A stretch of DNA of 46,315 nucleotides, taken from positions 1 through 46,315 of the IMG/VR virus record IMGVR_UViG_3300033485_000030; one strand, written 5' to 3'. This document shows, piece after piece, positions 8-42,490 of the stretch (its first letter is position 1; each line of letters begins with the position of its first letter). The DNA is from a virus. Lineage: Duplodnaviria; Caudoviricetes. Below the pieces are notes generated by a model. The model worked only from the letters and a program-made list of their open reading frames with translations, was not told where the DNA came from and searched no databases. The translations under genes were made by a program, and so were the position numbers.

Positions 8-2503
8 TTGAGAAGTCAAATTACTATTGAAAGAAATAAAACATATGCGGCACGTCAGGCTATGGCATATCGATTAAAAGAAAAAGGTTATTCAAATTCT
101 GCTATTGCCAAAAGGATGGGAATAAACGATCACACTGTAGCTGATCTTTTAGAACCATCTAGAAAATATAAACAAGATGTTGCGAAGACAATAGCGGACA
201 ATCTTGAAAAGGAAGTAAATGAAAATCGATATTTAGATGTTGGGTCTGGAGTTGAAACTTGGTTAGGAGTAAGCGGAACAAAGAAAACGGTTGCTCTTGA
301 GTTATTGAAAGAACGAGGTTATAATGTTCATGTTATTCCACAAGAGCAGCAAGGAACTGGAAAATATACATGGATGAAGGTTCTTGTTCCTCCAGGCGTT
401 AGTAAGGAAATGGTTTCGAGAAATCGTGAAAAAATAAAGACTATAGGTGCTCGTAGTGATGATGGAGGAGAAACTTTTAATCCTCAAGGGCCTCCTATAT
501 TTCTCGATGGAAAAAGAGTTTTCGTTCAATACGGATCTTCAAAAGATGGTGTAATTGAAATTCGTAGGAATGTTCAAGATCTTTCTTTAGGAAATAAAAG
601 ATATGCTCAAGTGCGTATTGGTGTAGATGGCACTCACTATATGAAGGGGATGGCGATGTATAGTGATGATATTCCTGAAGGATATGATATTATTTATAAC
701 ACAAATAAAAAACTGGAAGAGGCTAGTAAAGTTTTTAAAGCATTAGAAACAAAAGATCCAGATTACCCATTTGGGGCCGTTACAAGAGAAAAATTTTATG
801 ACAACAATACAAAAAAATCACCAATTAATATAGTAGGAGGAAAAGAAGGAGCTGGTGAAGAAGGTGCATGGGATGAATGGTCAAAAAATATTTCTTCTCA
901 AGTTCTTTCTAAGCAATCTCCAGCATTAGCAAAAAAACAATTAGGATTGGCATATAATCTAAAAAAAGACGAATATGATGAAATAATGTCATTAACTAAT
1001 CCGGCAGTAAAGCAAGCTCTTCTTGGTCCTTTTGCTGATTCTTGCGATGCTGCAGCAGTTCATTTAAAAGCAGCGGCTCTTCCTAGACAATCTTCAAAAG
1101 TAATTTTGCCTATTACTTCTTTAAAAGAAAATGAGGTTTATGCTCCAGGTTATTTAACAGGAGATCGATTAGCTCTTATCCGCCATCCTCATGGTGGATT
1201 ATTTGAAATACCAGAAGTAATAGTAAATAATAGAAATTTAACAGGAAAAAGACTTTTGGGAAATGCAAAAGATGTTATAGCAATGAATCCAAAAGTTGCA
1301 GCAAAATTATCAGGTGCTGACTTTGATGGGGACACGGTTATAGCTATTCCTAATAAAGCTGGTTATATTCAAACTAAACCATCTTTAAAAGCTTTAACAG
1401 ATTTTGATCATAAAGCTTCGTATCCATATTATGAAGGTATGAAAGTTATGGATAAACGTACAAAAGCTATAAAGATGGGTGATATTAGTAATCTTATCAC
1501 TGACATGACAATAAAGGGAGCTAGTCAAGATGAAATAGCTAGAGCTGTCCGCCATTCAATGGTGGTAATTGATGCTGAAAAACATAAATTAAATTATGTA
1601 CAATCGTATTATGATAATAATATAGCCCAATTAAAAAAGAGATATCAAGGGAAGTCAACAGCTGGAGCTTCAACTCTTATATCTAGGGCTGGTGCTGAGA
1701 AAAGAGTAAATGAGAGGGTAGAAATAAGACCTAAAAAAGATGATCTAAATTATAAAGGAGAGAAACTTTATAAGGAGACCGGTCGAACATATTTTAAAAC
1801 TGATTATATAAAAGATCCTAAAACTGGAAAGAAAATCTATTTACAAGGACAGGGAAGGATTGTAAAAAAACAAACAAAAAGTACAAGGATGGCTGAAGAA
1901 TCTGATGCTTTTAAATTATCATCTGGTACTCGTATTGAAGAGATATATGCTAAGCATGCTAATGGATTAAAAGAATTAGCAAGAAAAGCACGAATTTCTT
2001 TAGTTCGTACAGAGAATATTAAATACTCTCGCTCAGCTAGAGAAACATATGCACCTGAAGTAAAATCTCTTTTAGGAAAATTAAAAGTTGCTATGAGGAA
2101 TAAACCACTAGAGAGACAGGCCCAGTTAGTGGCCTCTAGGATAGTCCGTGCTAAGAGAAGGGCTAATCCCGATATGGAAGAAGATGATTTTAAAAGAATT
2201 AGAGGACAAGCTTTAGTTAATGCTAGACTAAGAGTAGGGGCTAAGAAAGAAAAGATAACCATTACTGATAGAGAATGGGAGGCTATTCAAGCTGGCGCAA
2301 TTAGTCATAATACTCTAAGAAACATCCTTAGTAATGCAGATTTAAAAGTATTAAAGCAAAGAGCTACTCCTAGACTTTCTACTCCTTTATCTCCTGCTAG
2401 AACTTCTCGAGCTAGAGCAATGATAAACGAAGGTCATACTTATGCAGAAGTAGCCGATGCCTTAGGTGTTTCTATTGATACAGTAGCAGAAGCTATTGAT
2501 TAA
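8..2503 (+). CDS. Putative single-subunit two-barrel RNA polymerase (YonO/eukaryotic RdRP-like) with N- and C-terminal HTH domains; probably 5'-truncated by the window edge
   Basis: GADFDGD metal-binding motif (nt 1313-1333), upstream RHP motif, and YAQVRIG...MKG resembling the QxR..G..KG motif of RdRP-like barrels. HTH-like segments GYSNSAIAKRMGINDHTVADLL and GHTYAEVADALGVSIDTV. The frame is open to the window start. Confidence 0.75.
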   Translation: MRSQITIERNKTYAARQAMAYRLKEKGYSNSAIAKRMGINDHTVADLLEPSRKYKQDVAKTIADNLEKEVNENRYLDVGSGVETWLGVSGTKKTVALELLKERGYNVHVIPQEQQGTGKYTWMKVLVPPGVSKEMVSRNREKIKTIGARSDDGGETFNPQGPPIFLDGKRVFVQYGSSKDGVIEIRRNVQDLSLGNKRYAQVRIGVDGTHYMKGMAMYSDDIPEGYDIIYNTNKKLEEASKVFKALETKDPDYPFGAVTREKFYDNNTKKSPINIVGGKEGAGEEGAWDEWSKNISSQVLSKQSPALAKKQLGLAYNLKKDEYDEIMSLTNPAVKQALLGPFADSCDAAAVHLKAAALPRQSSKVILPITSLKENEVYAPGYLTGDRLALIRHPHGGLFEIPEVIVNNRNLTGKRLLGNAKDVIAMNPKVAAKLSGADFDGDTVIAIPNKAGYIQTKPSLKALTDFDHKASYPYYEGMKVMDKRTKAIKMGDISNLITDMTIKGASQDEIARAVRHSMVVIDAEKHKLNYVQSYYDNNIAQLKKRYQGKSTAGASTLISRAGAEKRVNERVEIRPKKDDLNYKGEKLYKETGRTYFKTDYIKDPKTGKKIYLQGQGRIVKKQTKSTRMAEESDAFKLSSGTRIEEIYAKHANGLKELARKARISLVRTENIKYSRSARETYAPEVKSLLGKLKVAMRNKPLERQAQLVASRIVRAKRRANPDMEEDDFKRIRGQALVNARLRVGAKKEKITITDREWEAIQAGAISHNTLRNILSNADLKVLKQRATPRLSTPLSPARTSRARAMINEGHTYAEVADALGVSIDTVAEAID

Positions 2504-2800: not shown

Positions 2801-2876
2801 AGGAGGGGGGGTCTCGTAAAAAATACCCCCCTTCTGCATCGCGTGGCTCTCAAAAAATTCCCCGGGGGTAAAATTG
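2801..2876. other. GC-rich non-coding island, candidate cos/packaging-site region
   Basis: Inverted repeat GGAGGGGGGGT(2802-2812)/ACCCCCCTTCT(2825-2835), then CGCGTGGCT (2840-2848), then AAAAATTCCCCGGGGGTAAAATT. Lies between the polymerase block and the first virion gene. Confidence 0.45.
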
Positions 2877-2891
2877 AGGTTATCTTTCTGG

Positions 2892-3035
2892 AAAGTGTTT
2901 CTAAAAGAAGCGTTGAGTGTTGTGATTCGATCCTCCTTTTATTGGCACCTGACCGCCGTTTATCGAGCTGCCCACTCATTTTCCCTCCTTTTATTAGAAT
3001 CATATACTATTCAACGCTTTCTTTAGAATCATTTT
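2892..3035 (+). ncRNA. Candidate long-hairpin RNA A with two anti-Shine-Dalgarno motifs in the loop
   Basis: About 35 bp stem 2892-2928/2997-3035 with 4 G-U pairs on the + strand; loop has CCTCCTTTTATT twice (2932-2943, 2984-2995). Confidence 0.6.
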
Positions 3036-3055
3036 ATTGAAAAGAGGTGATTTTT

Positions 3056-5974
3056 ATGTCTGTCAAAGATTCAGACACTTTGAAAAGTTATTTTGCTTTA
3101 AGTAAAGTTCCGACTCCTTCTCAGTATATAGATTTAATCGATACAATCTTTGATCAAGGAAGTGGTTCTGGAGGAGATCATGATCACGATAATAAGTATG
3201 TGAAACTTCTTGAATCAGATAATATTATAGCTAGACATATATTTGCTCCTTCATCTCCACTTTCTCCTTTTATTCTTTCTGACAATGCTCAAGGTAAATT
3301 AGTAATAGGACTCAAAGCTGATCAGTTAAACAAATCTGTATTCGCAGGCAATGGTCTTACTGGTGGTGGAATTTTAACAAGTAGTATTACTTTAGATGTT
3401 AGTGCTGGAGATGGTCTTAGTGTTGGAGTAGATTCAATTTCTTTGCAAACTCCAGGAACTTTATCTTATAATTCAACAAATAATCCAGTATCAAATCACA
3501 CCCATTCAATTACTAATAGTTCAAATCCTGGTGCTTCAGAGAGTATATTATCAACCAATTCTTCTGGTCATTTAAGTTTAATTAAATTGAATACCGATGT
3601 GATTGGTGATAGAAGCGGATCAAATATTGAAATTAATCCTACTGGAGATATTACTCTTAATCCTGGTGGTAACGATATTTTACCTTTAATGAATTATGAT
3701 CTTAATCTAGGTTCTATAAATAAAAAGTTTTTAACTTTACATGCTGCTGAATTGTGGGTTGAAACATTGGTTGCTCAAAATACAATTGCGACTATTGGAG
3801 GACGTATCCTTATTGGTCCAACAACCGTTTTAACTAATGATCTTGGAACGAGTCAAACAAATTTAGTTTTAAATTCTGGTTTTGAAACGTCTGGTAGTGG
3901 TGGTTCTGATGTATTTTCTGATTGGACTGAAAGTGCTCCATCAGGATCCATTGTAAAAGATACTACTATTTATTATGAAGGTTCAGCTTCTTGTAAAATT
4001 GTAGCTGGTGTAACTCTTGATACATGTGTTTATCAAGATTTTTCTTTAACAGCTGGTTATTCTTATAGTCTTAGATTTTGGACAAGAAGTGATGGTGGTG
4101 GTTATGATTTACGATATGGAGTTTATGATATAACACATTCTTCTTGGATAATTTCTTTAACAGGAACTGGTAACAAAGCTACTTCTTGGGAAAGATTTAT
4201 TACTTATTTTTTAGTTCCTTCAGGTTGTACTTCTGTTAGATTGTATTTATATTGTACAGAAACTTCTGGATATTATGGAAACTTTGATGCTGTTTTAATT
4301 TCTAGAGATACAATTATTGTTAAGCATAATGAAATGAATATTTCTGATGTAGCATATATGGAAGCAGATGGAAAAGTTGAGTTTTTGTTAGTAACCTCGA
4401 CAGCATCTGAAGTATCTAATGGTTATCAATACTCGGTAGTAAGAGATTATGATGGATCAGGTTTAACAGCATGGTATGCTGGAGATGCAGTATTTAATAC
4501 TGGAACAACTGATCAAGGTTTTATAGATCTTTATTCTATAAGAGGCGTTAAACTTCCAACTCAATATGGTCCAACCATTGTTGGTAATGTTAGATCATCT
4601 TTAACATATAATGATTGGATTGAACATTGGGCTATTGGAAATTTAAATGGTCTTTATGGATATGGTGTAGATACCTATGGAACCGCTTTTGGAAAGTATG
4701 CAAATTCTAAATCCTTTTTAACCATTGATGCAACAAATGGTATAAGAATGCGATATAGAGATGGATCTGGAGTTTTAACAACGAGAGCTCAATGGGATCT
4801 TAGTGGTAATGTTTTGATAGGCCAAGTTGGTAGTTCCCTTTCCAATATATATATTAGTTCTGGTCAAATTCAGTTACGTAACAATACCACGGTTAATATT
4901 CAATTAGATACAAGTGGTAATGCAACTTTTGGTAATGTTGCCACTAATCAGGGAAACATGTATTGGAACGTTTCAAATAAAAGAGTTGAATTTCGTGGTG
5001 GAACAGATGGAACCGTTGTGCAAGCTTATGTTGATACGACAGGAGCCATTAGCGCTGGTTCTGGAGTTGTTCTACTAAATTCAGATGGATTAAGTATTAC
5101 TTTTGGAAATGGCGATGTTAATGAGATAAAATTTAAATCTGGTTCAACCAAGGTAGGCTATATTCAATTTGCCGGTACATCTTCTGATACATCAGCAATA
5201 ATTAGAGGTGGTGTAAATAGTCAGAATGGTTATGTTCGCCTTGAAGCAGCAGATGCAGCATATTTTCTTATAGATAGTAATTCTAGTGCTGTTTTAGATA
5301 GTTATAGTAATTTTAATATTCAACTTCCAGGTGATAGTAATTATGTTAATATACTTGGTGGATCTTATAGTACTTATTTATATGCGTCTGGAAGAGTGGA
5401 CGTCGGAGAGGATTGTAGAATTAATGGGGGTTTATATGTTGGGGGACTTGGTGTAGATCCTGGAGTTGGAATTATACGATGTGTTTATGATCTAATAGCT
5501 GACGGAGGTATCATTGCTGGAAGAAATGCTGATCCTGGTGATGGAAATATTCAATTTACTGGAAGTCTTGGTTCCTATAAAAATTCAACCGTTTATACCG
5601 GTTATATATTTATTCCTTTATCAACACCATTAACTTCTACATCTTGGGATGGAGATGCTAGAAGTACAACGTCAAAAACATTAATTGACTTATCTTCAGT
5701 TTTTGGAGCACCAGCTGGAATTAAAGCGGTATTGTGTCAGATACAGTTACGAGATTCTGGTAGCGCAGCAAATGATTGCTATTTAATATTAGCTGCTCAT
5801 AATACTGCAGGTCAAGGAAGTATTGTAAGATGTACTGGCATTGCTAATGATTCTTCTCATAACGAGATGGTTATTACTGCTTGCGATGCAAATGGAGATA
5901 TATATTACCAGTGTCAAGCTAGTGGTTCATCAACATTAGATATATGGCTTCAAATTTATGGTTATTGGATATAA
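3056..5974 (+). CDS. Tail fibre / receptor-binding protein with an internal carbohydrate-binding-like domain
   Basis: About 970 aa, Gly/Ser/Thr rich, HDHD and HTH metal-knot-like motifs, NLVLNSGFE...W...EG CBM-like segment, globular C-terminal tip. Confidence 0.7.
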   Translation: MSVKDSDTLKSYFALSKVPTPSQYIDLIDTIFDQGSGSGGDHDHDNKYVKLLESDNIIARHIFAPSSPLSPFILSDNAQGKLVIGLKADQLNKSVFAGNGLTGGGILTSSITLDVSAGDGLSVGVDSISLQTPGTLSYNSTNNPVSNHTHSITNSSNPGASESILSTNSSGHLSLIKLNTDVIGDRSGSNIEINPTGDITLNPGGNDILPLMNYDLNLGSINKKFLTLHAAELWVETLVAQNTIATIGGRILIGPTTVLTNDLGTSQTNLVLNSGFETSGSGGSDVFSDWTESAPSGSIVKDTTIYYEGSASCKIVAGVTLDTCVYQDFSLTAGYSYSLRFWTRSDGGGYDLRYGVYDITHSSWIISLTGTGNKATSWERFITYFLVPSGCTSVRLYLYCTETSGYYGNFDAVLISRDTIIVKHNEMNISDVAYMEADGKVEFLLVTSTASEVSNGYQYSVVRDYDGSGLTAWYAGDAVFNTGTTDQGFIDLYSIRGVKLPTQYGPTIVGNVRSSLTYNDWIEHWAIGNLNGLYGYGVDTYGTAFGKYANSKSFLTIDATNGIRMRYRDGSGVLTTRAQWDLSGNVLIGQVGSSLSNIYISSGQIQLRNNTTVNIQLDTSGNATFGNVATNQGNMYWNVSNKRVEFRGGTDGTVVQAYVDTTGAISAGSGVVLLNSDGLSITFGNGDVNEIKFKSGSTKVGYIQFAGTSSDTSAIIRGGVNSQNGYVRLEAADAAYFLIDSNSSAVLDSYSNFNIQLPGDSNYVNILGGSYSTYLYASGRVDVGEDCRINGGLYVGGLGVDPGVGIIRCVYDLIADGGIIAGRNADPGDGNIQFTGSLGSYKNSTVYTGYIFIPLSTPLTSTSWDGDARSTTSKTLIDLSSVFGAPAGIKAVLCQIQLRDSGSAANDCYLILAAHNTAGQGSIVRCTGIANDSSHNEMVITACDANGDIYYQCQASGSSTLDIWLQIYGYWI

Positions 5975-7665: not shown

Positions 7666-7809
7666 TAGTTTCCAAGTGCTTTCAGAAGGGATATCGATTA
7701 AGTCTGCCAAAAAAATTTGACGGTAGTCGTTTTTCTCCTTTCAAGAGACCCTCTCATTATAGGTTAATACAGACTACACGATATCTCTTCTAAAAGTGCT
7801 TGGAAACTA
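7666..7809 (+). ncRNA. Candidate long-hairpin antisense RNA B; loop complementary to early-gene ribosome-binding leaders
   Basis: Arms 7666-7696/7779-7809 pair at 30 of 31 positions (3 G-U); inner stem AGTCTG/CAGACT; loop 7727-7747 is the exact reverse complement of 40750-40770. Confidence 0.7.
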
Positions 7810-8750: not shown

Positions 8751-9104
8751 ATGGCTAGTTCCAAGAAAGGTGTTATTAAGCGTGTTAAGCCAAATAGAAG
8801 ACCTCCAGCACCAACTCCAGAGGCTCGCGAAAATCAACTTATAAAAGCAGCGATCGATTTGGCTGAAGAGCAACTTTCTAATGGAACTGCGTCTGCACAA
8901 GTCATTACACATTATTTAAAACTAGGTTCTACCAAAGAACGATTAGAGAAAGAAAAACTTGCTAGAGAAAATGAACTTCTTTTAGCTAAAACAGAAGCTC
9001 TTCAATCTGCTAAACGGGTTGAAGAGCTTTATGCTAACGCTTTAAATGCAATGCGTTCTTATGGTGGAACTAGAGAAGCGGATGATGTCGATGACAATGA
9101 TTAG
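8751..9104 (+). CDS. Hypothetical protein, possible small terminase subunit
   Basis: RBS TAGGAG; helical; upstream of HNH and terminase. Confidence 0.55.
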   Translation: MASSKKGVIKRVKPNRRPPAPTPEARENQLIKAAIDLAEEQLSNGTASAQVITHYLKLGSTKERLEKEKLARENELLLAKTEALQSAKRVEELYANALNAMRSYGGTREADDVDDND

Positions 9105-9936: not shown

Positions 9937-10554
9937 ATGCCATATCCTAATGAGCATGCAGTTAGAGTAAAAGATCCTGGTTTATTCATTCCTGATTCTT
10001 TTAGAAGTAAAGAAATAAAACCAGGAATACGAATAATTATTGGTAAATTAAAAAGTGGAACTTCTATGGTTACGCAGGCATATAGATTTTCATCAGATAG
10101 TTATACTATTGAAGAAGTTAGATCTTGGTTAAAAGATAATAATGTGGCTTATATGAAAATTGAACCTGCCAGTGAAAAAGAAGATAATAAATTGGAACAT
10201 ATTGGCGTTAAAGGAATGCGTTGGGGTGTTAGGAAATCAATAAATTCTGGGAGATCGTCTGGCAAAAAAGGGGGTTCGAAAGAGAGTCCTGATTATAGTA
10301 ATGTATCTAAACTCAGAAAAAAGAAAATAAAGAGTATGTCTAATGAGGAAATGGAAAGAGTAGTTAAACGAATGAGTTTAGAGAAAAGATATAAGGAAAT
10401 TAATCCTAGTAAAGTTAAACGTGGAAGTAAAGCTGTTGGTAACGCCTTTACAACTGTAGGTCAAGTGGCAGGAGTAGCTGCATCCATAGTTACATTAGCA
10501 ACTCTTGGAAAAAAATTCTTCGATTATTATAATAAAGTAAAAGGTGGTGGATAA
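9937..10554 (+). CDS. HIGVKGMRWG-motif protein with an extra N-terminal PYPNEH domain
   Basis: LEHIGVKGMRWGVRK in mid-protein; basic C-terminal half with a hydrophobic helix; AGGAGG RBS. Confidence 0.7.
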   Translation: MPYPNEHAVRVKDPGLFIPDSFRSKEIKPGIRIIIGKLKSGTSMVTQAYRFSSDSYTIEEVRSWLKDNNVAYMKIEPASEKEDNKLEHIGVKGMRWGVRKSINSGRSSGKKGGSKESPDYSNVSKLRKKKIKSMSNEEMERVVKRMSLEKRYKEINPSKVKRGSKAVGNAFTTVGQVAGVAASIVTLATLGKKFFDYYNKVKGGG

Positions 10555-14017: not shown

Positions 14018-15107
14018 CAATACTTATACTACACCCGGACCTGGAAATTTTACTGTTCCAAGCGATGTTACTCAACTTATTATAGAATTATGGGGCGGTG
14101 GAGGAGGAGGTGGTGGATCAAATCAAAATTCCACTGCTGGAGGAGCTGGAGGTGGTGGTGCTGGTGCATATGTTAGAATCGTTGTAGATAATGTAGTACC
14201 TGGTAATGTGCATGGGTTTAATGTTGCTTCGGCTGGTGCAGGGGGCCCAGCCGGTAACAATAATGGAAATTCTGGTGGAGCTTCAAATTTTTATAATAAT
14301 TCTGGTGGTAATACAAGTATTATTGTTTCTGCAAATGGTGGTGGTGGAGGTCTTAGAGCTAATAATACTGGTAATAAAGCTGGTATTGGTGGTGCCGCTA
14401 ACGGAGAAGTAGGAACATCATATAAAGGTGGAAACGGTTCTAATAATGGTGGTGTTAGTACTGGTGGTGGTGGAGGTGCTGGAGCAGGAAATGCAAATGC
14501 TGGTGCCGATTCAACTGGACAAACAGGAGCAACAGGAGTTAATGGTGGTGGATCTGGTGGTAATGGTGGTTCTAGAAATGCTAATGGTAATAATTATCAA
14601 ACAGAACCAGGTGCTGGTGGTGGAGGAGCAGGTAGAGCTAATGTGACAGCTCCAAGAGCTGGTGGCACAGGGGCAAATGGTAAAATTATTGTTACTTATT
14701 ATATAAATATTACCGAAAGTATAACTTTAACTAGATCCTCTGGAATATCAATTACTGAAGGATCTTCTTTTTTAGAGAATGTTACAGTAACTAGATCTTC
14801 TGGGATATCTAATAGTGAAGATTTATCCATTCCAGAAAGTGTTACATTAACTAATTTTACTGGAATATCGATTAGCGAAGAAGTATCTAGTCAAAATATT
14901 GAGGAAAGTATAACATTATCTAAATACGATGGAATTATTTCATTAGATGAATTAGTAGGACAAGATGGAAACATATTAACTAAATACGATGGAATTAGTT
15001 TACTAGATGAAGTAGAAAACCAAGATGGAAATACATTAGTAATTGATAATAAAACTATTAGTGTAACAAATTTTGCAATTATTGAAGAAACTTTATATGG
15101 AAATTAG
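14010..15107 (+). CDS. Glycine-rich-domain fibre protein with C-terminal ~20-aa repeats
   Basis: FTVPSDVT..IELWGGGGGGG ... GANGKIIVTY glycine-rich domain, followed by ESITLxRxxGI repeats. Confidence 0.75.
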   Translation: MASNTYTTPGPGNFTVPSDVTQLIIELWGGGGGGGGSNQNSTAGGAGGGGAGAYVRIVVDNVVPGNVHGFNVASAGAGGPAGNNNGNSGGASNFYNNSGGNTSIIVSANGGGGGLRANNTGNKAGIGGAANGEVGTSYKGGNGSNNGGVSTGGGGGAGAGNANAGADSTGQTGATGVNGGGSGGNGGSRNANGNNYQTEPGAGGGGAGRANVTAPRAGGTGANGKIIVTYYINITESITLTRSSGISITEGSSFLENVTVTRSSGISNSEDLSIPESVTLTNFTGISISEEVSSQNIEESITLSKYDGIISLDELVGQDGNILTKYDGISLLDEVENQDGNTLVIDNKTISVTNFAIIEETLYGN

Positions 15108-15112
15108 GAGGT

Positions 15113-15529
15113 ATGATGTCTATTTTACAAATATTATACAATGAAATTATTAATGATCCTCTTGGACGTGGTTATTCTAATATGACAAATGCTGAAATAG
15201 CTGAAAGTATTAATACTATTAATAGAAGTAAAACAAAATCATATTTGAACGGTTCTATTATTTATGAAACTATTGATATTTCAGAATATATCCTTCTTCC
15301 TCTGACAGAAAAAGAAGAAGTTTGGAATATTATTCATCTTGGAGAAAACATTGATGTGCGTCCAGGAAGTAAAGCACGTACTCGTTTTATTTCAATATTT
15401 GGAGTTGGTTCTAATACAATTTCAGCACTTGCTAATATATTAAATATACCTATTAGTCGTGGGGAAGAATTAGGAATTGGTGAGGTATCAGAAGGACTAG
15501 TATTTGAAGCGAAAGCCTTAGGAGGATAA
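15113..15529 (+). CDS. Hypothetical protein of the fibre cassette
   Basis: AGGAGG RBS; DPLGRGY and SRGEELG motifs. Confidence 0.7.
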   Translation: MMSILQILYNEIINDPLGRGYSNMTNAEIAESINTINRSKTKSYLNGSIIYETIDISEYILLPLTEKEEVWNIIHLGENIDVRPGSKARTRFISIFGVGSNTISALANILNIPISRGEELGIGEVSEGLVFEAKALGG

Positions 15530-15530
15530 T

Positions 15531-15974
15531 ATGAGTACATCTAAATGGGAAGCTAGAGCAAATGCTGAGACTGTTTTATCTACAGAATTAAATTCATTAG
15601 CAAATGATGGGAATAAACTCTCTGCAGCATTTGATAATTATTCTAGCGATAAGCTTTATCTTTATGCCGAGTTTGAATTATATCTTGCCGCCCAGAGTAC
15701 TAGAAGTGCTGGAGCTCATGTAGCTTTATTTATTCTTCCGGAACTAGATGGTTCAAATTATAGTTATGGTGATGATTCTACAGATCCATCAGCTTCTTCT
15801 TTAGTAGCTACCTTTCCTCTTGATGCCGCTACTAATGCTAGATATATAGTTATTACTGGCGTTGTTCTTCCTCCTACTAGTTTTAAGATTCTGGTAGAAA
15901 ATAAAACTGGAGTAGCATTTGCTAGTAGTAGTAATACACTAAAAATGCGACGTTATAACGTTCAGGGGGTTTAA
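15531..15974 (+). CDS. Hypothetical beta-rich protein of the fibre cassette
   Basis: AGGAGG RBS; tightly packed. Confidence 0.7.
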   Translation: MSTSKWEARANAETVLSTELNSLANDGNKLSAAFDNYSSDKLYLYAEFELYLAAQSTRSAGAHVALFILPELDGSNYSYGDDSTDPSASSLVATFPLDAATNARYIVITGVVLPPTSFKILVENKTGVAFASSSNTLKMRRYNVQGV

Positions 15975-18900
15975 ATGGCCATAAAGTTTGGAGTGACGCC
16001 AGGAAATCCAGGTTTTTCTATTTCCAAACTTCCATCTAGAAGATCATATAGAGTTAATTGGGCAAATCCGATTACCAAAAACCTAGTATTCTTTGCGTCA
16101 TGGCTAAACATTGGTACCGATTTAGCAACAGATCTTGTTCGTGGAAGACGTTCTACCAGAGGTGGTGTTCAAACTCGAAAAGCTGTTTCCGATCCCGAGA
16201 TGGGAGAAGTATTTGAATGGGGCGCAGACACTGAAACCGGTGCGGGAAGAGATATATTATCTTGGGGAATATTATCTGAGTGGAATGGAAGAAACCAAGC
16301 TTCTATAGCAGTATGGTTGAAAGTATTAGATGATGCTACCGGCACAGAAATTTTATTTGGAATTCAAGATGCGGGTAATTCTTGGGAAGGTTATAATGTT
16401 GAGACCTGGACATCGGGTATGCGCAATGCCGAGGCCTCTCCCGATGACACATATATAGGGAGAGAAACAACTGGTACTGGACTCCCCGGTAAATGGGAAC
16501 TTCTTGTAAATGTTTATGATGGAACAAAGTCAACAGTCGAAGAACGACTAAAACTTTATCAAAATACTGTTCCATTAGGCGGAACTGTTGGTACTATACC
16601 AACTGCGCTGGGAACGTTTACAGATATATGGCAAATGCATGCTGGAAATTTTGGAGAGCCAGACTGCCATTATAGAGCTCTTTATTTTGCTGGATGGCAA
16701 CGTTCTCTTACTCCATATGAAGTATCTCTTCTCTACGCACCCCAGACACGTTTTGATATATATAGATTTGATGATCCAACATTTTTCTTAATATTAGATG
16801 GGGGTGCAATTAATGAATCAGTTAGTTTATCAAAATCTGTAGGAATAGTTTCATCTAATCAAGTTAATATTCAAGAATCTGTCTCTTTAGGTAGAACTAA
16901 TGGAGTTTCCATCGGTATATCAACAATTTCAGTTGTTCAAACAAAAGGTACTAGAACTATTTCAGGAAATACTTATTATGATTTAGCGTTTGATAGCAAT
17001 ATTACTGCTGGAAATCGTATTGTGATTATTGTAGGTAAGGGTGCCGGTACTGATCAAACTCCTTTTGTTCTTGGAGATATTTCTAAATCAGCAGGTACTG
17101 CTACTCTTGGTTCATTTACAATGGAAAAGAGTGCTACTCATAATGAAAATATTAGACATGCAGCTATATATTCTGCACATGTTACTGGTTCTGGTAGTTG
17201 TACTATAAGAATAGCTGTTACTATAGATAAAGCAGTTATAATAGCCCTTGCAGAAATACACTCCGGACTTGGTTCTTTAGTTGTTGGTAATAGTACTAAT
17301 TCTGGTCAAGGAAATACTGGTTATCCCTCATCAGGAGATATAACAACTGATGGAGAAGGTATTATTATCGGTGGTGGACAGATACAAGATCCACCTTCTG
17401 AAATAATTACTGAAGATACTTTCTTTACTAATATTTATAAATCAGCCGATGTTAATTATTGTACAGGTGCTTCAGAATATCGAATTGTACCTCAAACTAC
17501 TACTGATGCAGTAAGTTATCTAGCTCCATCAACGGTTAAATGGGTGTTAGTTGGAGCAACTTATTTAGTATCAGAAGAAATAGAAGAATCTATTAGTCTA
17601 GAAAAGAATTTAGGAGTATCATTTTCTGAGCAATTATATATATCAGATAGTTATATTCTAACTAAATCTGCCGGAATAGTTTCATCCGATCAGATAATAG
17701 TAGAAGATAGTTATATTCTAACTAAATCTTCAGGAATAATTTCATCCGATCAGATAATAGTAGAAGGTAGTTATATTCTAACTAAATCTTCTGGAATAGT
17801 TTCATCCGATCAGATAATAGTAGAAGATAATTTACTCCTTTCAAAACTTAATGAGATATTATCAACTAATCAAGCAGATATTCAAGATTTTATCAATCTT
17901 TTAAAGTTAAAAGGAATAAATATTTATTCGTCAATTTTAGTTGATGAAAGTTCTTTATTAAATATATTTGAAAATTTAGTAGTAGTAGAGCAAACGGGTT
18001 CAGCTATTGAAGAGTCAATCACTTTATCAAAAAGACTTTATGTAACTCAAAAACAACCAGCAGTAGAAGAATCAGTTATTTTAACAAAGTCCATTGGAAT
18101 AATTTCATCCGATCAAGTTAATATTCAAGATACTTCAGTTCTTATTAAATCATTAAATATTATTAGTATTGATCAAGTTTTTATTCAAGATTTAGTAAGT
18201 TTTTCAATATCAAATTTAATAATTTCCTTAGACCAAATAATAATTAGTGATGAATTTAGTTTAAATAAATTATTAGGCATTAGTAGTCTTGATAGTCCAG
18301 TTACAGAAGAAAGCATTAGTTTAATAAAGAATTTAATATTATCTTCTTCTGATCAATTAGATATATTAGATAATATAAATCTTGGAACTGTTTTATCTAT
18401 TAATGCAATAGAAACTATTTCAGTTTATGATAGTTTAATCTTTTTAAGATCTAGTGATATATTACTAAGCGATCAAGTTAATCTTCAAGAAATAGTTAGT
18501 CTTCTTAATATTAAAGGAATTGAAGCAGTTTCACAAGTTTTTGTTAATGATGCTTTAAGTTTTTCATTATTAAAGACTATATTAGTAATTGAAGAAACTC
18601 AAGGACAGTATGCTGAGGTTATTACTTTAGCACGTTATAATACTATAAGTATATTGCAAGAAGGAATAAGTAATGTTAGTGAAAGTTCTCTTCTTAGTCG
18701 ATTAAACGGAATTAATATTACTGATCAAAATATATCTAGTGCTAATATTAATTTAGCTCGTTCAGATGGATTGAGTAGTTCTTTAACAAGTATAATTAGT
18801 GTCTCTTCTTCCTTAGATCGCTTTGCTACTATCACTAGTGTTACTAATTCTAATGTTAATAATGATATTTCATTAAGTTATCTCAAAGGATTAAATAGTA

Positions 18901-19277
18901 ATGATCAATTAATTTTAAATTATTTAGTAAATCTATCAAGATCGAATGAATTAGGAATATTTGATAGTAGATATGTATTAGAAAATATTGAATTTGGATA
19001 TACTAATTATTTAAACATAAATGATAATGCGCTAGTTTTTGAAAATATTGGACTTTACAAAATAGATTTTGTTACTCTTGTAACACTATTAATAGCTGGT
19101 AATGAAATTAGTCTTTATCAGTTTAAATATGTTATAGCAGAACCATCGCTTCCTTACATATATATTCTAGGCGATCATTCGGTAGCAGTTCTTTTTAGAA
19201 ATAAATCTATTTTTGTACCTTTTAGAGATAAATCTATTCATATACCCTTTAGAGATAAACGTTTGTCTAGTGTTTAG
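15975..19277 (+). CDS. Large fibre/adhesin-like protein: LamG/concanavalin-like N-terminal domain, second beta domain and long ~20-aa repeat stalk
   Basis: SIAVWLK...WELLVNVYDG...LKLYQN...WQRSLTPYEV LamG pattern; many ESIxLxKxxGIxSSDQ repeats. Confidence 0.75.
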   Translation: MAIKFGVTPGNPGFSISKLPSRRSYRVNWANPITKNLVFFASWLNIGTDLATDLVRGRRSTRGGVQTRKAVSDPEMGEVFEWGADTETGAGRDILSWGILSEWNGRNQASIAVWLKVLDDATGTEILFGIQDAGNSWEGYNVETWTSGMRNAEASPDDTYIGRETTGTGLPGKWELLVNVYDGTKSTVEERLKLYQNTVPLGGTVGTIPTALGTFTDIWQMHAGNFGEPDCHYRALYFAGWQRSLTPYEVSLLYAPQTRFDIYRFDDPTFFLILDGGAINESVSLSKSVGIVSSNQVNIQESVSLGRTNGVSIGISTISVVQTKGTRTISGNTYYDLAFDSNITAGNRIVIIVGKGAGTDQTPFVLGDISKSAGTATLGSFTMEKSATHNENIRHAAIYSAHVTGSGSCTIRIAVTIDKAVIIALAEIHSGLGSLVVGNSTNSGQGNTGYPSSGDITTDGEGIIIGGGQIQDPPSEIITEDTFFTNIYKSADVNYCTGASEYRIVPQTTTDAVSYLAPSTVKWVLVGATYLVSEEIEESISLEKNLGVSFSEQLYISDSYILTKSAGIVSSDQIIVEDSYILTKSSGIISSDQIIVEGSYILTKSSGIVSSDQIIVEDNLLLSKLNEILSTNQADIQDFINLLKLKGINIYSSILVDESSLLNIFENLVVVEQTGSAIEESITLSKRLYVTQKQPAVEESVILTKSIGIISSDQVNIQDTSVLIKSLNIISIDQVFIQDLVSFSISNLIISLDQIIISDEFSLNKLLGISSLDSPVTEESISLIKNLILSSSDQLDILDNINLGTVLSINAIETISVYDSLIFLRSSDILLSDQVNLQEIVSLLNIKGIEAVSQVFVNDALSFSLLKTILVIEETQGQYAEVITLARYNTISILQEGISNVSESSLLSRLNGINITDQNISSANINLARSDGLSSSLTSIISVSSSLDRFATITSVTNSNVNNDISLSYLKGLNSNDQLILNYLVNLSRSNELGIFDSRYVLENIEFGYTNYLNINDNALVFENIGLYKIDFVTLVTLLIAGNEISLYQFKYVIAEPSLPYIYILGDHSVAVLFRNKSIFVPFRDKSIHIPFRDKRLSSV
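17647..17829 (+). repeat. Three near-identical 60-bp tandem repeats
   Basis: GATAGTTATATTCTAACTAAATCT...TCATCCGATCAGATAATAGTAGAA x3, coding DSYILTKSxGIxSSDQIIVE. Confidence 0.95.
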
Positions 19278-34760: not shown

Positions 34761-35169
34761 TTATGCTCTCGATCCCCTTGAAATATTGCTTATTATAATT
34801 ATTCCATCGATTATTTCTGGAGTTCCAGCATTAATCTCAGCAATAGCAGCATGGAAAACTGAACGTAAAAAGAAAGCAGAAACCTTAACAGAAGAAGGTA
34901 GCGCCGCGGAAAAAGTTGCAATGGCGTATGATAGATTAGTTGAAGATCTTCAAATAAGAATTGATAAAATGGAGGCTCGATATCAAAAAGATTCTGAACA
35001 ATTTCAAGAAAGGTTAAAAGCAGCCGAACAAAGGATAGATAGACAAGGAAAACGGATTCGGCATCTTGAGCAAGGTGTTGATCAATTGATTACTCAAGTA
35101 AAATCATTAGGGGCAGAACCAGTTTTTACTATTCCTCCTAATGAACTAGAAAATGATAAAGATTTATAA
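34753..35169 (+). CDS. Membrane-anchored coiled-coil protein (lysis cassette)
   Basis: N-terminal TM helix followed by a long coiled coil; upstream of the holin. Confidence 0.65.
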   Translation: MTDYALDPLEILLIIIIPSIISGVPALISAIAAWKTERKKKAETLTEEGSAAEKVAMAYDRLVEDLQIRIDKMEARYQKDSEQFQERLKAAEQRIDRQGKRIRHLEQGVDQLITQVKSLGAEPVFTIPPNELENDKDL

Positions 35170-35182
35170 AAAGGAGATTATC

Positions 35183-35668
35183 ATGTTTAGTAATAAAGTC
35201 TATGACGTTTTAAAATTTTTGGCGCAATACGTTCTTCCTGCTCTTGCAAGTTTATATTATGGTCTATCGGCAATTTGGGGTTTACCATATTCTGAACAAG
35301 TCGTAGGTACAATCTTAGCAGTTGATGCTTTTCTAGGAGCATTGCTCGGTATTAGTTTGATTCAATATAATAAGAAGCAATCTGATAAATATGTGCAAGC
35401 TCAAATGCCAGAAATTATGGAACAAACTGCCTCCTCAAAATCTGTTTTTGCAATGAAAAGTACTACATACGATATCTTTTATTGGATCGTCCAAGTAGTT
35501 CTTCCTGCCCTTGGCACACTATATTTTGCACTTTCCTCTATCTGGAGTTTACCATATTCTGAGGAAATTGTGGGTACGATCACTCTAATTGATACTTTCT
35601 TAGGTATATTCCTAGGTATTAGCACTTCTCAATATAATAAATTAAATAGTGGTGTTTCTCCGACGTAA
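35183..35668 (+). CDS. Holin with two tandem Dp-1-like holin domains
   Basis: YD....Q.VLPAL..LY..LS.IW.LPYSE..VGTI...D.FLG..LGIS..QYNK occurs twice. Confidence 0.8.
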   Translation: MFSNKVYDVLKFLAQYVLPALASLYYGLSAIWGLPYSEQVVGTILAVDAFLGALLGISLIQYNKKQSDKYVQAQMPEIMEQTASSKSVFAMKSTTYDIFYWIVQVVLPALGTLYFALSSIWSLPYSEEIVGTITLIDTFLGIFLGISTSQYNKLNSGVSPT

Positions 35669-35677
35669 TTTTCTCCT

Positions 35678-35702
35678 TCGCATAATAAACATGGGCTATA
35701 AT
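35678..35702 (+). promoter_or_regulatory. TCGYR-N14-TATAAT promoter, copy 1
   Basis: TCGCA-TAATAAACATGGGC-TATAAT. Confidence 0.7.
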
Positions 35703-35735: not shown

Positions 35736-36020
35736 ATGAATAAAAAGAAAATCCCGAGAATAGAAGACGAGATTGATCACATATTAAGATTTATGGCGAA
35801 TCATGAGCCGGATAAAGAAGAATATTCAGTTGCCACAAGAAACTTGAAGGAGTTATATGAAGCTCGAAGTAAGAAAAAAGCGAGCTTCATAGAAGCCGCA
35901 GAGGTACTAGTGGTAGTTGCAAGTATTTTTGAATTACTGGCTGTTTTACGCCACGAGGAAATCAACGTGATAACCTCGAAAGCATTTCAAATGGTTTTGG
36001 GATTGAAAAAATTCTTGTAG
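35736..36020 (+). CDS. Hypothetical protein
   Basis: TAAGGAG RBS before ATG 35736; between promoter 1 and a terminator. Confidence 0.7.
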   Translation: MNKKKIPRIEDEIDHILRFMANHEPDKEEYSVATRNLKELYEARSKKKASFIEAAEVLVVVASIFELLAVLRHEEINVITSKAFQMVLGLKKFL

Positions 36021-36038
36021 TAAATAAAGTTTTAAAAG

Positions 36039-36069
36039 GAGGAGTCTAAAACATGGACTCCTCTTTTTT
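36039..36069 (+). terminator. Intrinsic terminator
   Basis: GAGGAGTCT / GGACTCCTC + T6. Confidence 0.8.
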
Positions 36070-36073
36070 CTCC

Positions 36074-36098
36074 TCGTAGAAATTACAATGATTATAAT
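36074..36098 (+). promoter_or_regulatory. TCGYR-N14-TATAAT promoter, copy 2
   Basis: TCGTA-GAAATTACAATGAT-TATAAT. Confidence 0.7.
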
Positions 36099-36122
36099 AG
36101 AGAGTTTCTAAAGGAGAAAAAA

Positions 36123-36371
36123 ATGATTGACATAAAATATTTTAAAGCCATAAGATTGCATTTAGGTTTAAGTTTGGAAGATATTGCTCGTGAGATGCAT
36201 TGCACAAAGCAAACTATAAGTAATATTGAAAACGGGAAGTCGAAGCATAAAATGGCAATAGCATTCTATGAAGAAATTTTAGGAAACCATTTAAAAGAAA
36301 CTCCAATAAATACAAAAGAGTATTTTAATGCTATAGAATATCTTTATAAAAAGAAGTTAAATAGAAATTGA
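36123..36371 (+). CDS. XRE-family HTH transcriptional regulator
   Basis: IRLHLGLSLEDIAREMHCTKQTISNIENGK. Confidence 0.9.
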   Translation: MIDIKYFKAIRLHLGLSLEDIAREMHCTKQTISNIENGKSKHKMAIAFYEEILGNHLKETPINTKEYFNAIEYLYKKKLNRN

Positions 36372-36393
36372 AGCCGAATAGGCTTCTTTTTTT
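36370..36393 (+). terminator. Intrinsic terminator
   Basis: GAAGCC / GGCTTC + T7. Confidence 0.75.
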
Positions 36394-36417
36394 CAAAAGT
36401 TTAAATAAAAGGAGATT

Positions 36418-37335
36418 ATGATGAACGATTTTGATGATGTTTATATTTTACCACAATATAGCAATATTGAACGAGGTGACGTAGATTTGTCAGGAAATAT
36501 ATTTAACATTCCATTGAGTGTTCCAGTGCTTTCATCGCCAATGGATACCGTGTCCAAACTTCCAATGCTTAAAGCTCTTATTGAAGAGAAATGTCTCGGT
36601 GTTCATCACCGTTACTGTTCTCTAGCAACATTATTGGAAGCCAGTGAATACGGTGCTATTGCCGTATCTCCTAGCATTCCATTAGATTTTTTAGAAAAAT
36701 ACTCTATGGATTATAATATAGCAGTATTGGATGTGGCGCATGGCCACACTCGAAGGAATTTAGATTATTCCTTCGAACTTGTAAAAATGGGATGGAATGT
36801 TATTAGTGGGAATATAGTAACCAGAGATGCTGCAGAGGACTATTTGAAACTTGGGATTAAGCATCTAAGAGTAGGTATTGGGTCTGGGAGCGTATGCACA
36901 ACTAGACTCGTTACTGGTGTTGGACGTCCACAATATAAGGCAATTCGTGAAATTCATTCTGAGTTTAAAAATGACGCGTTAATTATTTCCGATGGGGGTC
37001 ATAGAAATACTGGGGATATAGCAAAAGCCTTTGCTTTGGGTGCTTCCTATGTTATGCTAGGAAGAATGCTAGCAAGCACTAGGGAGGCTGAAAATGACGG
37101 TATTTATAGTGGTATGGCAAGTTCTGCAGCCTTACGGCGAAATCGAAAAACGGAATTCTTTGTCGAGGGGAAATCTGAAATAATTTATGTAAATCAAACT
37201 GTTCATGAGGTAATAACTGAAATTAAAGCGGCGCTGGAAACAACCTGTTATTATTCTGGTGTAAAGACATTAAAGGGTTTGGCAGGAAATTTCGAACTTT
37301 GTAGCGATCCTTTGAAAAATATACCTTGGAGTTAA
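36418..37335 (+). CDS. IMP dehydrogenase / GMP reductase family protein without CBS domains
   Basis: SSPMDTV, DVAHGH, GNIVT, VGIGSGSVCTTR (catalytic Cys), SDGG, GDIAKA, YSGMAS. Confidence 0.9.
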   Translation: MMNDFDDVYILPQYSNIERGDVDLSGNIFNIPLSVPVLSSPMDTVSKLPMLKALIEEKCLGVHHRYCSLATLLEASEYGAIAVSPSIPLDFLEKYSMDYNIAVLDVAHGHTRRNLDYSFELVKMGWNVISGNIVTRDAAEDYLKLGIKHLRVGIGSGSVCTTRLVTGVGRPQYKAIREIHSEFKNDALIISDGGHRNTGDIAKAFALGASYVMLGRMLASTREAENDGIYSGMASSAALRRNRKTEFFVEGKSEIIYVNQTVHEVITEIKAALETTCYYSGVKTLKGLAGNFELCSDPLKNIPWS

Positions 37336-37373
37336 TTTGGCAAAAATACCCCGAGGGTCAATTTCGTAAAACC

Positions 37374-37466: not shown

Positions 37467-37925
37467 ATGGACGAGAAAGTTATACGATCTCTTATAATCG
37501 ATCCAAAATATAATTATAGTTTGGAAACGATCGGATGGGGATCTGAGGAAGCAATTGCTGAATTTAAAGAATGGATTCACTTTTGGAGAATTAAGAAAGC
37601 TTATTCAGAAGGAAATTATGAAATTAGGACAGGAACTCCTCCAGATGACTATAATTTTTACTACTCGGAGATGTGCTGGGGGTGGTTAAAATCGGGGCGT
37701 CGAGATCGACCTGTCGTGGTAACGTTCGCCGATGGCGAACGTGGATCAGAGGTATTTGACTCATCTAATCATGGCTTGATCATTTGGTACCAAGGATCAA
37801 AGAAGGCGCTGGACGTACTATGGATGCATAAAGCCTCTCAGGCACTCTTGAGTAAACGTATAAGCCCAGGCGAATTCATAAGCATAATAAAAATGATTAT
37901 TGAGGATGAAGAAGATAAGAAATAA
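37467..37925 (+). CDS. Hypothetical protein
   Basis: CTCTTGAAAGGAGAAAA leader before ATG 37467. Confidence 0.75.
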   Translation: MDEKVIRSLIIDPKYNYSLETIGWGSEEAIAEFKEWIHFWRIKKAYSEGNYEIRTGTPPDDYNFYYSEMCWGWLKSGRRDRPVVVTFADGERGSEVFDSSNHGLIIWYQGSKKALDVLWMHKASQALLSKRISPGEFISIIKMIIEDEEDKK

Positions 37926-37935
37926 AGGAGGAAAA

Positions 37936-38265
37936 ATGCCAATTTTTGAGGACTATACCGCATTTGTAGATGGGATAGTTATTGATGTGTTACATTATTT
38001 CGAAACTATAGAGAAAATCACCAGGTTGATCGAGAAAAAACTTGGTGGGCATTTATTTACGAGATTGGATAATAAGATTGTATATTTAGGCTGGGTCAAG
38101 GGAAATACGGAATATAATCAGGCTTTTTCTCTTGAAGAGTTCAACAGGATTATTGATCCATGGGCTCTAGCATACAAATTTATCCGATCTTGTGAGGATT
38201 CTCTCCGCGAGGTCCACCCCGGCGATTCAGGGTGTGGCGAATCCAAAAGGATAGAAACGTCCTGA
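37936..38265 (+). CDS. Hypothetical protein
   Basis: AAAGGAGG RBS before ATG 37936. Confidence 0.7.
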   Translation: MPIFEDYTAFVDGIVIDVLHYFETIEKITRLIEKKLGGHLFTRLDNKIVYLGWVKGNTEYNQAFSLEEFNRIIDPWALAYKFIRSCEDSLREVHPGDSGCGESKRIETS

Positions 38266-38647: not shown

Positions 38648-39393
38648 CGTTAGGAACCATTTTAAAAGCAGTTGTAAGGGGAATAGAAAGGGAGTCTCCT
38701 ACAATCCTAACAGTCCTTGGGGTTAGCGGAGTTGTAACAACTGCTATTTTAGCGGTTAGAGCGACTCCTAGAGCTCTCTTTCTTATAGAGCAAGCAAAGA
38801 AAGAAAATGATCCAAAAAAGGAGTTTACCAAATTAGACACCGTCAAAGCGTCCTGGAAATGCTATATTCCCAGTGCCCTTATGGGTGTGGGAACAGTAGT
38901 TTGCATAATTTCTGCCCATTCGATTAATCTGCGTCGAAATGCGGCGATTGCTGGACTCTACACAGTAAGCGAGGCAGCGCTAAAGGAGTACCAAGAGAAG
39001 GTAGTTGAGATAATTGGCGAAAACAAAGAAAGGAAGATAAGAGAAGAAATTGTACAAGATCGTCTTGACAGAAATCCTCCCAAAGAGATTGTTTTGACTG
39101 GGAAAGGGAGTACTTTATTTTACGATTCTTGGTCAGGACGATATTTTGAGAGTGATATGGAAAAGGTTAAGAAAGCGCAAAACGATCTTAACCATGCTTT
39201 ATTGGGCGGCGATATGTATTTGTCGCTAAACTCGTTCTATGATGAATTGGGCTTAGAGCGAATCGATGGGGGAGAAGAAATTGGATGGACGTTCGATTAT
39301 GGGATGCTGGAGGTGAAATATACCTCCAAGATAACCAATAACGGCGTCCCCTGTATCGTAATAGAGTATTCTATAAAACCGAAACATTTTTAG
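38644..39393 (+). CDS. Conserved phage membrane-associated protein (DUF6353-like), paralogue of 42491-43402
   Basis: SPTILT.LG..G...T...A.RAT, RRNAAIAGLY, SLNSFYDELGL..GW pattern shared with the paralogue. Confidence 0.7.
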   Translation: MTLGTILKAVVRGIERESPTILTVLGVSGVVTTAILAVRATPRALFLIEQAKKENDPKKEFTKLDTVKASWKCYIPSALMGVGTVVCIISAHSINLRRNAAIAGLYTVSEAALKEYQEKVVEIIGENKERKIREEIVQDRLDRNPPKEIVLTGKGSTLFYDSWSGRYFESDMEKVKKAQNDLNHALLGGDMYLSLNSFYDELGLERIDGGEEIGWTFDYGMLEVKYTSKITNNGVPCIVIEYSIKPKHF

Positions 39394-39402
39394 GAGGAGA
39401 AA

Positions 39403-39558
39403 ATGGGCGATCTTATTTTCAGGAGAGACATAACCGACAGAAGCTTTTTTGAAAAGGTCGAATGCTGTCTCGTTTTTATTGCAGCTGTCATATTCTCTAT
39501 AGGAGTTCTGGCAGCTTTAGTAGCTTTAGGAATTTGGGCTTGGAAATTCATTTCCTAA
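39403..39558 (+). CDS. 51-aa membrane protein (not in ORF track)
   Basis: AGGAGG RBS; MGDLIFRRD...VFIAAVIFSIGVLAALVALGIWAWKFIS. Confidence 0.65.
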   Translation: MGDLIFRRDITDRSFFEKVECCLVFIAAVIFSIGVLAALVALGIWAWKFIS

Positions 39559-41925: not shown

Positions 41926-41930
41926 TTTAA

Positions 41931-42031
41931 AAAAGCCAACAGGATGCACCTTATAAATGCTGGTCATAATAGGACGAGTTAGCCAGATAGAAATTAAATA
42001 AATGCTGGGAATACCAGGACTGTTGGCTTTT
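41931..42031 (+). ncRNA. Candidate structured RNA/regulatory element
   Basis: Perfect 12-bp closing stem AAAAGCCAACAG/CTGTTGGCTTTT enclosing two ATAAATGCTGG repeats. Confidence 0.4.
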
Positions 42032-42323: not shown

Positions 42324-42490
42324 ATATTCTGCATATGTTCTTGGTCAAAATTTGTCATCGACCTAGTGGAATAAATTACAAACTATATATTCCAGCCAAA
42401 GGTCCAAAAGAAGCAGTAAAAGAAGTAAGAAAAATAGATCCAAATGGATTTATTAAATCTGTTAAAGATATTGATAAAAGGAGAAATTAG
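42320..42490 (+). CDS. 56-aa protein, paralogue of 42052-42246 (not in ORF track)
   Basis: MNILHMFLVKICHRPSGINYKLYIPAKGPKEAVKEVRKIDPNGFIKSVKDIDKRRN. Confidence 0.7.
   Translation: MNILHMFLVKICHRPSGINYKLYIPAKGPKEAVKEVRKIDPNGFIKSVKDIDKRRN

Follow-up and report, generated by a model that had tools for sequence, protein, structure and literature searches.

What may a long predicted RNA hairpin do that displays the complement of ribosome-binding sites in its loop and is located just inside the left end of a phage genome, directly before the late genes? This question is raised by positions 2892 to 3035, hairpin A, of the window, which is the whole stretch of 46,315 nucleotides analyzed here. The window comes from a 1706-like (AM/AU/AW/EL/Lactococcus-type) siphophage. 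On the + strand, genes for terminase, portal, a capsid-protease fusion and the tail come first, and a group of small early/middle genes follows them. The left arm is called late solely because the packaging and virion proteins are encoded there. The inferred left cos end is 43 nt upstream of the first base of hairpin A, which has the following surroundings.

8–2503 (+): single-chain two-barrel RNA polymerase (phrog_4291, DFDGD motif, QDE-1/P74 gp62-like fold); the start of the gene is upstream of the window.
2802–2848 (no strand): right genome end and inferred cos junction; 2802–2844 are the terminal bases of the records of cultured relatives.
2850–2868 (+): conserved left-end motif, an A-run followed by CCCCGGGGG; candidate packaging site or promoter.
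3056–5974 (+): first left-arm gene after hairpin A, 972 amino acids, no PHROG or Pfam match; its leader is not a preferred partner of the loop.
7666–7809 (+): hairpin B, second member of the hairpin family, UUCUCC class, with a loop complementary to early leaders.
8751–9104 (+): phrog_4259 gene, the marker downstream of the family hairpin in relatives.

The cos junction was placed near 2848 because 2802–2844 matches the last bases of several relatives' records, for instance 55769–55811 of the 55815-bp DizzyRudy record and likewise Scap1 and others. A scan for promoters and terminators around hairpin A yielded none that could be tied to it. Copies resembling the left-end motif also occur elsewhere: an A-run/CCCCGGGGG-like copy at 37343–37365 directly precedes an early promoter-like site, and a third look-alike of the CCCCGGGGG motif at about 43028 lies inside coding sequence. 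A promoter-like motif, TCGC ... TATAATG, stands before early genes at 35679, 36075, 37375, 39562 and 40365, and three of these copies constitute the repeat family D18. Two head-region genes contain repeats with a 60-nt period (14700–19000), and a holin with two tandem holin domains is encoded at 35153–35668.

Relatives of the polymerase were found in 250 phage records, mostly from phages of Arthrobacter, Gordonia, Streptomyces, Microbacterium, Rhodococcus and Lactococcus, and these phages are the supercluster that has been described (10.1101/842583, PMC7302621). The structural model (pLDDT 80.6) is most similar to QDE-1 and RDR2 (E 2e-9, TM about 0.33) and also matches the phage polymerases P74 gp62 and gp64. 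The N-terminus, covered by L001 upstream of 3431, carries a short LxHIG motif resembling those in the proteins at 9937 and 10554. A genome scan for the host returned two MAG contigs and no usable host.

Folding of 2892–3035 as + strand RNA gave −39.9 kcal/mol with a z-score of −6.17, and none of 200 shuffled sequences was equally stable, compared with −33.1 kcal/mol, a z-score of −3.27 and 2 of 200 equally stable shuffles for the minus strand. The elements of the predicted fold are as follows.

2892–2928 (+): 5' arm of the hairpin A stem.
2932–2943 (+): anti-SD copy 1 (CCUCC class), predicted single-stranded, unpaired probability 0.89.
2977–2995 (+): complement of a start codon, spacer and anti-SD copy 2, predicted single-stranded, unpaired probability 0.87–0.95.
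2997–3035 (+): 3' arm of the hairpin A stem.

The closing stem comprises 35 pairs, with G-U pairs at 2895/3032, 2907/3020, 2917/3010 and 2922/3003 and a single A-C mismatch at 2906/3021. This agrees with the original prediction of a long stem with four G-U pairs against one A-C mismatch, which had omitted a U-U mismatch (2898/3029) and two bulged U residues. The loop of 68 nt (2929–2996), also as predicted, contains CCUCCUUUUAUU twice, at 2932–2943 and 2984–2995, with a mean unpaired probability of 0.89 for copy 1 and 0.95 for copy 2, and both cores remain unpaired when 2850–3250 is folded. The proposed extension of the second copy to the complement of a start codon was found as CAUUUUC at 2977–2983. 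An inner stem between GGCA and UGCC, assumed to separate the two copies, received a pairing probability of only 0.09 and was abandoned. Shuffling the loop 20,000 times produced a repeat of at least 12 nt in 3 cases, and 1 of 681 tiles of the window contained such a repeat. On the + strand of the window, the 12-mer of A is present at the two loop sites only and its complement is absent. A strand-neutral finder identified only four stems in the window at its threshold; hairpins A and B, which agree in size and architecture as the original prediction had stated, have anti-SD loops, and the remaining two stems are inside coding sequence. At 41929–42031, just before the leader of early gene 42052, about 14 pairs form another stem, which closes a loop of roughly 75 nt; its only Rfam matches are at chance level. 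The original reading of an RNA-type structure rather than a DNA palindrome, displaying anti-SD sequence on the + strand and akin in architecture to hairpin B, is supported by the G-U bias, covariation and loop conservation observed across the family.

This family was surveyed in the best 80 of 557 phrog_4259 loci, 6 of which had less than 230 nt upstream and were dropped, leaving 74 evaluable loci. A long stem not more than 1.6 kb upstream of the phrog_4259 gene was present in 57 of the 74. An anti-SD core was found in all 57 loops with a permissive pattern, and the exact CUCCUUU in 50. Control stems downstream numbered 7 in 545 kb, and none of the 7 had an anti-SD core. In the remaining 17 loci the element was not found, and at least 2 of these loci end inside the element. 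Loci that span the cos junction contain, directly behind it, long stems whose sequences are unrelated and whose loops are of the CUCCUUU type. Counted with the strand-neutral finder, 37 non-redundant elements have 117 G-U pairs against 36 A-C mismatches, and in 24 of them the left-end motif is located a median of 26 nt upstream of the stem, compared with about 30 nt for hairpin A. Double changes affect 16 of 27 and 21 of 29 pairs in two alignable subfamilies, values that none of 500 shuffles reached in a test that ignores kinship, and controls with a slid structure lowered the paired fraction to 33 to 51%. The stems in these two subfamilies covary and the loop core is nearly invariant. Among hairpin B and four relatives, 18 of 37 pairs carry double changes.

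Hairpin A shares three features of the family. Its 35 pairs with 4 G-U against 1 A-C lie within the 25 to 50 pairs and the + strand G-U bias of the other stems, its large loop presents the unpaired CUCCUUU core in two copies, and it is positioned after the left-end CCGG(A/G)GG motif and before the packaging genes. Covariation and conservation of the loop, proposed as a check of the original prediction, are present family-wide, but the covariation is borrowed from the family in the case of A because no orthologue of A was found. A double-motif pattern retrieved four loci, three of which proved on folding to be tandem or direct repeats without the stem, the fourth being L055. Cos-plus-motif patterns retrieved 63 loci, with a stem only in the window's own record and in L241. 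Apart from the cos region, a blastn search of the cultured phages with A matched nothing beyond short stretches attributed to chance. The closest relative, L183, ends before the left end, and the model of another subfamily (R1) scored 12.9 bits on A (E 0.55), below three unrelated matches.

Among 12 cultured phages, Mudcat, Gordon, Egad, Camille, Yotsuba, P162 and CHPC971 carry the element, and the left-end hairpin was not found in Tanis, Secretariat, Scap1 and OlympicHelado. Most cultured genomes were covered to 50 kb, and the twelfth, Pepy6, to 6 kb, which is short of the marker gene. Tanis (L057), a DJ phage without the left-end hairpin, has a long stem with a pyrimidine-rich loop in its early region (36001–36171), the best complements of which are only 11 nt long. 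Two hairpins of the family type stand in tandem directly behind the cos region in L046 and L047, and L112 and L039 have two long stems each. In L050, positions 10346–10411 on the minus strand match the Pistol ribozyme with 35.9 bits, just over the gathering score.

Rfam 15 gave no match at gathering score in the window or over the hairpins of nine related loci, for skipping-rope or any other family. The hits of MIR1514 (22.7 bits, E 0.08, cut-off 90) and sn3060, obtained at E up to 10, were taken as chance. A literature search yielded no description of the element. The supplements of Fremin 2023 and Weinberg 2017 could hold the motif; the files searched from the former gave no match, and the portions of PMC10690425 and PMC5737381 covered by the search do not mention the element. 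The hairpins upstream of the phrog_4259 gene are a widespread family of anti-SD hairpins that is absent from Rfam, and A is a credible member of it.

Loop seeds were compared with gene leaders in 15 genomes, composed of the window, 9 uncultured and 5 cultured phages, with gene starts and early/late borders called by script. Four genomes with no left-arm hairpin listed, G008, Tanis, Scap1 and OlympicHelado, stayed outside this comparison; the element of G008 appears as L087 in the family survey. Exact complements of at least 12 nt to a loop were present in 75 of 710 early leaders, as against 5 among the 307 late ones (p 9e-8). For 11 of 18 loops, no other genome ranked above the phage's own, counting ties (permutation p<1e-4, with kinship ignored). 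Where the leader motif differs, the loop differs alongside, with exact runs of 16 to 24 nt that often extend over the spacer and the AUG; such runs were found in G003, G004, G007, G009, G010, CHPC971 and for hairpin B. The median energies of whole loops did not separate early from late leaders in most genomes, and the signal seems therefore to be confined to a subset of the leaders. The second hairpins of G007 and CHPC971 (L180, 45261–45421) are both inside the early region. Each of them has one partner leader with a 16-nt match, which is that of the DNA polymerase gene in CHPC971.

Hairpin B follows this pattern, with exact complements of 21, 18 and 17 nt to the early leaders 40775, 45325 and 37467 and a best partner at −38.0 kcal/mol, which none of the foreign leaders equalled. 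Its orthologue is located at 3420–3557 of L183. For hairpin A, the candidates in the window are as follows.

39375–39410 (+): leader of early gene 39403, strongest candidate of copy 2, −21.6 kcal/mol.
37908–37943 (+): leader of gene 37936, candidate of the original prediction, −16.1 kcal/mol, ordinary.
36393–36426 (+): leader of the IMPDH/GMP-reductase-like gene 36421, longest exact complement to A, 11 nt.
42463–42496 (+): leader of the DUF6353 gene 42491, 10-nt exact complement to A.

The likeness to the leader of gene 37936 exists, but its pairing energy is equalled by 18% of 732 GGAG leaders of other phages, and 37936 is not supported as a specific target of A. The energy of the 39403 leader is equalled by 0.5% of the foreign leaders, which is not significant over the approximately 60 genes tested. 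The IMPDH/GMP-reductase-like gene occupies 36421–37335 in the early region. Compared with the other 14 genomes, the own genome of A ranked 3 by exact run and 12 by energy, and for the individual seeds 3 and 2 with z-scores of 0.8 and 1.0. The top three exact runs of A had means of 10.0 and 9.7 nt on early leaders versus 8.0 nt on late leaders; the late leaders 26402, 10554 and 15531 came close behind the early ones in pairing with A, and of the window's 12 GGAGG leaders 7 belong to late genes. The match of copy A to the visible phage leaders is near background, little stronger than its pairing with foreign leaders. The evidence for the family is strong and that for the targets of copy A is weak.

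Part of the early region may be missing. Of 10 relatives, 8 have 19 to 33 kb between the DUF6353 gene and the polymerase gene and the remaining two have 11.7 and 15.0 kb, compared with 11.1 kb here; these distances suggest that about 10 kb of early genes, probably including the DNA polymerase gene, are missing from the window. Searches for this segment gave no match, one unrelated locus and no motif in five partial relatives, and the 3.4 kb upstream in L001 contained no good partner of A.

The composition of the other loops suggests how A and B may be related. In six of the eight two-core loops besides A, the first core is CCUCC and the second a non-C core, compared with one CCUCC core in 27 single-core loops. 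In L241 the exact 12-mer of A stands beside a B-type core, and for all five other CCUCC-class seeds the own genome ranked first. From these three observations, A looks like the GGAGG half and B like the GGAGA half of a pair. The GGAGG specificity, which relatives keep in one loop together with a B-type GGAGA specificity, is here probably contributed by A. B is likely to cover GGAGA leaders with long matches, and A to cover GGAGG leaders broadly, or else a single leader in the missing 10 kb.

Because similar hairpins in relatives change their loops with their own early leaders, hairpin A is likely an RNA that lowers early protein synthesis. The preferred reading, a late-operon antisense RNA whose loop masks early ribosome-binding sites and lowers their translation, is given an even chance of being correct. 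Its starting points are the fold and position of A, the G-U bias and covariation of the family, the fixed loop core and the joint change of loops and leaders in the relatives. The left-arm transcript would start with hairpin A, ahead of the packaging and virion genes. This RNA is likely made, and its probable late timing is taken from the structural genes behind A. Long double-stranded RNA stems can keep a loop open, protect RNA ends and be cut by RNase III. The 35-bp stem may do the same here, and RNase III may excise the hairpin by cutting within the stem. The loop would then pair with the SD, the spacer and the start codon on early-region mRNAs that have GGAGG-type leaders, and this pairing would lower early translation as virion synthesis begins. 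In a wider and tentative form, held at somewhat below an even chance, the lineage with its actinobacterial and Firmicutes hosts may end the early programme by RNA alone, using a private signature in its ribosome-binding sites and a complementary loop on the late transcript, with the switch split between A and B in this phage.

Other explanations have to be weighed against the preferred reading. The foremost of them, itself unlikely, is a broad decoy, in which A would bind host mRNAs with strong AAAGGAGG leaders and contribute to shut-off, or would bind all strong leaders. The core of A is the generic CCUCCUUU, presented twice, and A does not have the phage-specific flank seen in B and is not tuned to the visible phage leaders; the 18% of foreign GGAG leaders that pair with it at −16.1 kcal/mol or below fit this reading as well. 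The loops of relatives, however, track phage leaders, those with CCUCC-class seeds included, and a decoy would also affect the phage's own seven late GGAGG leaders. Next in rank, and rather improbable, is an action in cis as the 5' leader of a late transcript, through an effect on stability, processing by RNase III or regulation of the gene that follows, with the anti-SD loop paired to the next ribosome-binding site or to nothing. In favour of this, the element always stands in sense directly upstream of a late gene, comes shortly after the left-end motif and is not followed by a terminator. The adjacent downstream gene was nevertheless the best partner in none of 18 elements; the leader of the gene at 3056 has a 5-nt match to A and 41 of 61 genes do better. 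The unpaired cores in the extended fold likewise speak against pairing in cis, which would also leave the matches of 16 to 24 nt to distant early leaders unexplained.

Three further readings have low to very low probability. The loop and the leaders may share a site for a protein that binds double-stranded DNA, similar to an operator, or A may be a decaying inverted copy of a leader without a role. This is quite improbable: a DNA site or an inversion would produce the same sequence in inverted form, and A has no orthologue, but the excess of G-U over A-C and the interchange of G-C and G-U point to a fold of single-stranded RNA, the matches are centred on the SD and often reach the spacer and AUG, and A retains a 35-bp stem and two identical cores. 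That the hairpin RNA serves as guide, primer or template for a QDE-1-like polymerase, in an RNAi-like silencing of early mRNAs, is very improbable, although the neighbouring polymerase resembles QDE-1 and RDR2 most and both polymerase and hairpin mark the same phage lineage. The same fold also matches the P74 enzymes, BI and DJ phages have the polymerase with no left-end hairpin detected, and YonO, another single-chain phage polymerase, is reported to be DNA-dependent and to transcribe late genes (PMC5467207). Least probable of all is a leftward gene of 69 amino acids that starts on the minus strand with the ATG at 2979, the loop being just the complement of its ribosome-binding site. The spacing between SD and ATG is good, and in Mudcat the annotated gene 2 occupies this spot on this strand, but the reading frame runs across the cos end and has no match in Pfam. 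Behind 28 of 43 cores there is no start codon, and the other 15 yield products of 2 to 101 amino acids with no shared sequence; Mudcat, Gordon, Camille, Egad and Yotsuba would have 65, none, 9, 22 and 59 amino acids, respectively. Mudcat gene 2 (L058, 371–568, minus strand) was annotated over the hairpin and Egad gene 1 (L248, 395–526, plus strand) over the stem, and both may not be genes.

If the antisense reading is true, a lytic lineage uses a single structured RNA, which recognizes a signature common to the leaders, to time its switch from early to late expression, in place of a protein or an antisense RNA with one target. Such a regulon-wide antisense timer would bear on the question of what binds over-conserved ribosome-binding-site motifs like the SAS of mycobacteriophages, and would offer a function for repeats of the SAS type. 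Copy A would add the case of a second, differently addressed copy. The family can be tested now because seven cultured phages carry the element. Provided that the function holds, this would be a new form of phage antisense control.

The hairpins can be compared with several known systems. The RNAIII/RsaE-type small RNAs of Staphylococcus aureus use unpaired C-rich loops, often in several copies, to pair with the SDs of several mRNAs; they are host small RNAs whose hairpins are short and which have a promoter and a terminator of their own, and Rfam revealed no match of their sequence or structure to hairpin A. The skipping-rope RNA was considered for its name and its link to phages, and was rejected: Rfam showed no match to it, whether at gathering score or with E up to 10. 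It is described as having a 3' terminator and an association with DUF3800-type genes (PMC5737381).

The c4 RNA of phages P1 and P7 is cut from a longer transcript and its open loops pair in trans, covering part of a ribosome-binding site (PMC5320573). The likeness consists in a phage RNA loop placed over a target ribosome-binding site in trans, which is a prediction in the case of hairpin A. According to the same source, c4 is a 77-nt RNA with three stems that is processed by RNase P and acts in immunity and lysogeny, whereas the hairpin family has a single stem of 25 to 50 bp with a loop of 35 to 125 nt at the head of a late operon, and the loop matches a class of early leaders. Membership in c4 was rejected on the different fold, the lack of a match to the Rfam c4 models and the lytic late context.

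The SAS of cluster K mycobacteriophages are extended SD motifs that precede non-structural genes and are over-conserved; one copy, in reverse, is not tied to any gene start, and it was left open by the authors whether an RNA or a protein binds to them (PMC3203893). This is the same layout, viewed from the side of the targets. The window cannot be assigned to SAS itself, since the 13-bp consensus does not occur and the leader motif here is of the CUCUUGAAAGGAG type; sequence and phage lineage are different, and the SAS reverse copy comes without a described hairpin or function in that account. In the hairpin family, unlike SAS, the reverse copy is presented by a loop whose stem covaries, and this copy changes together with the leaders.
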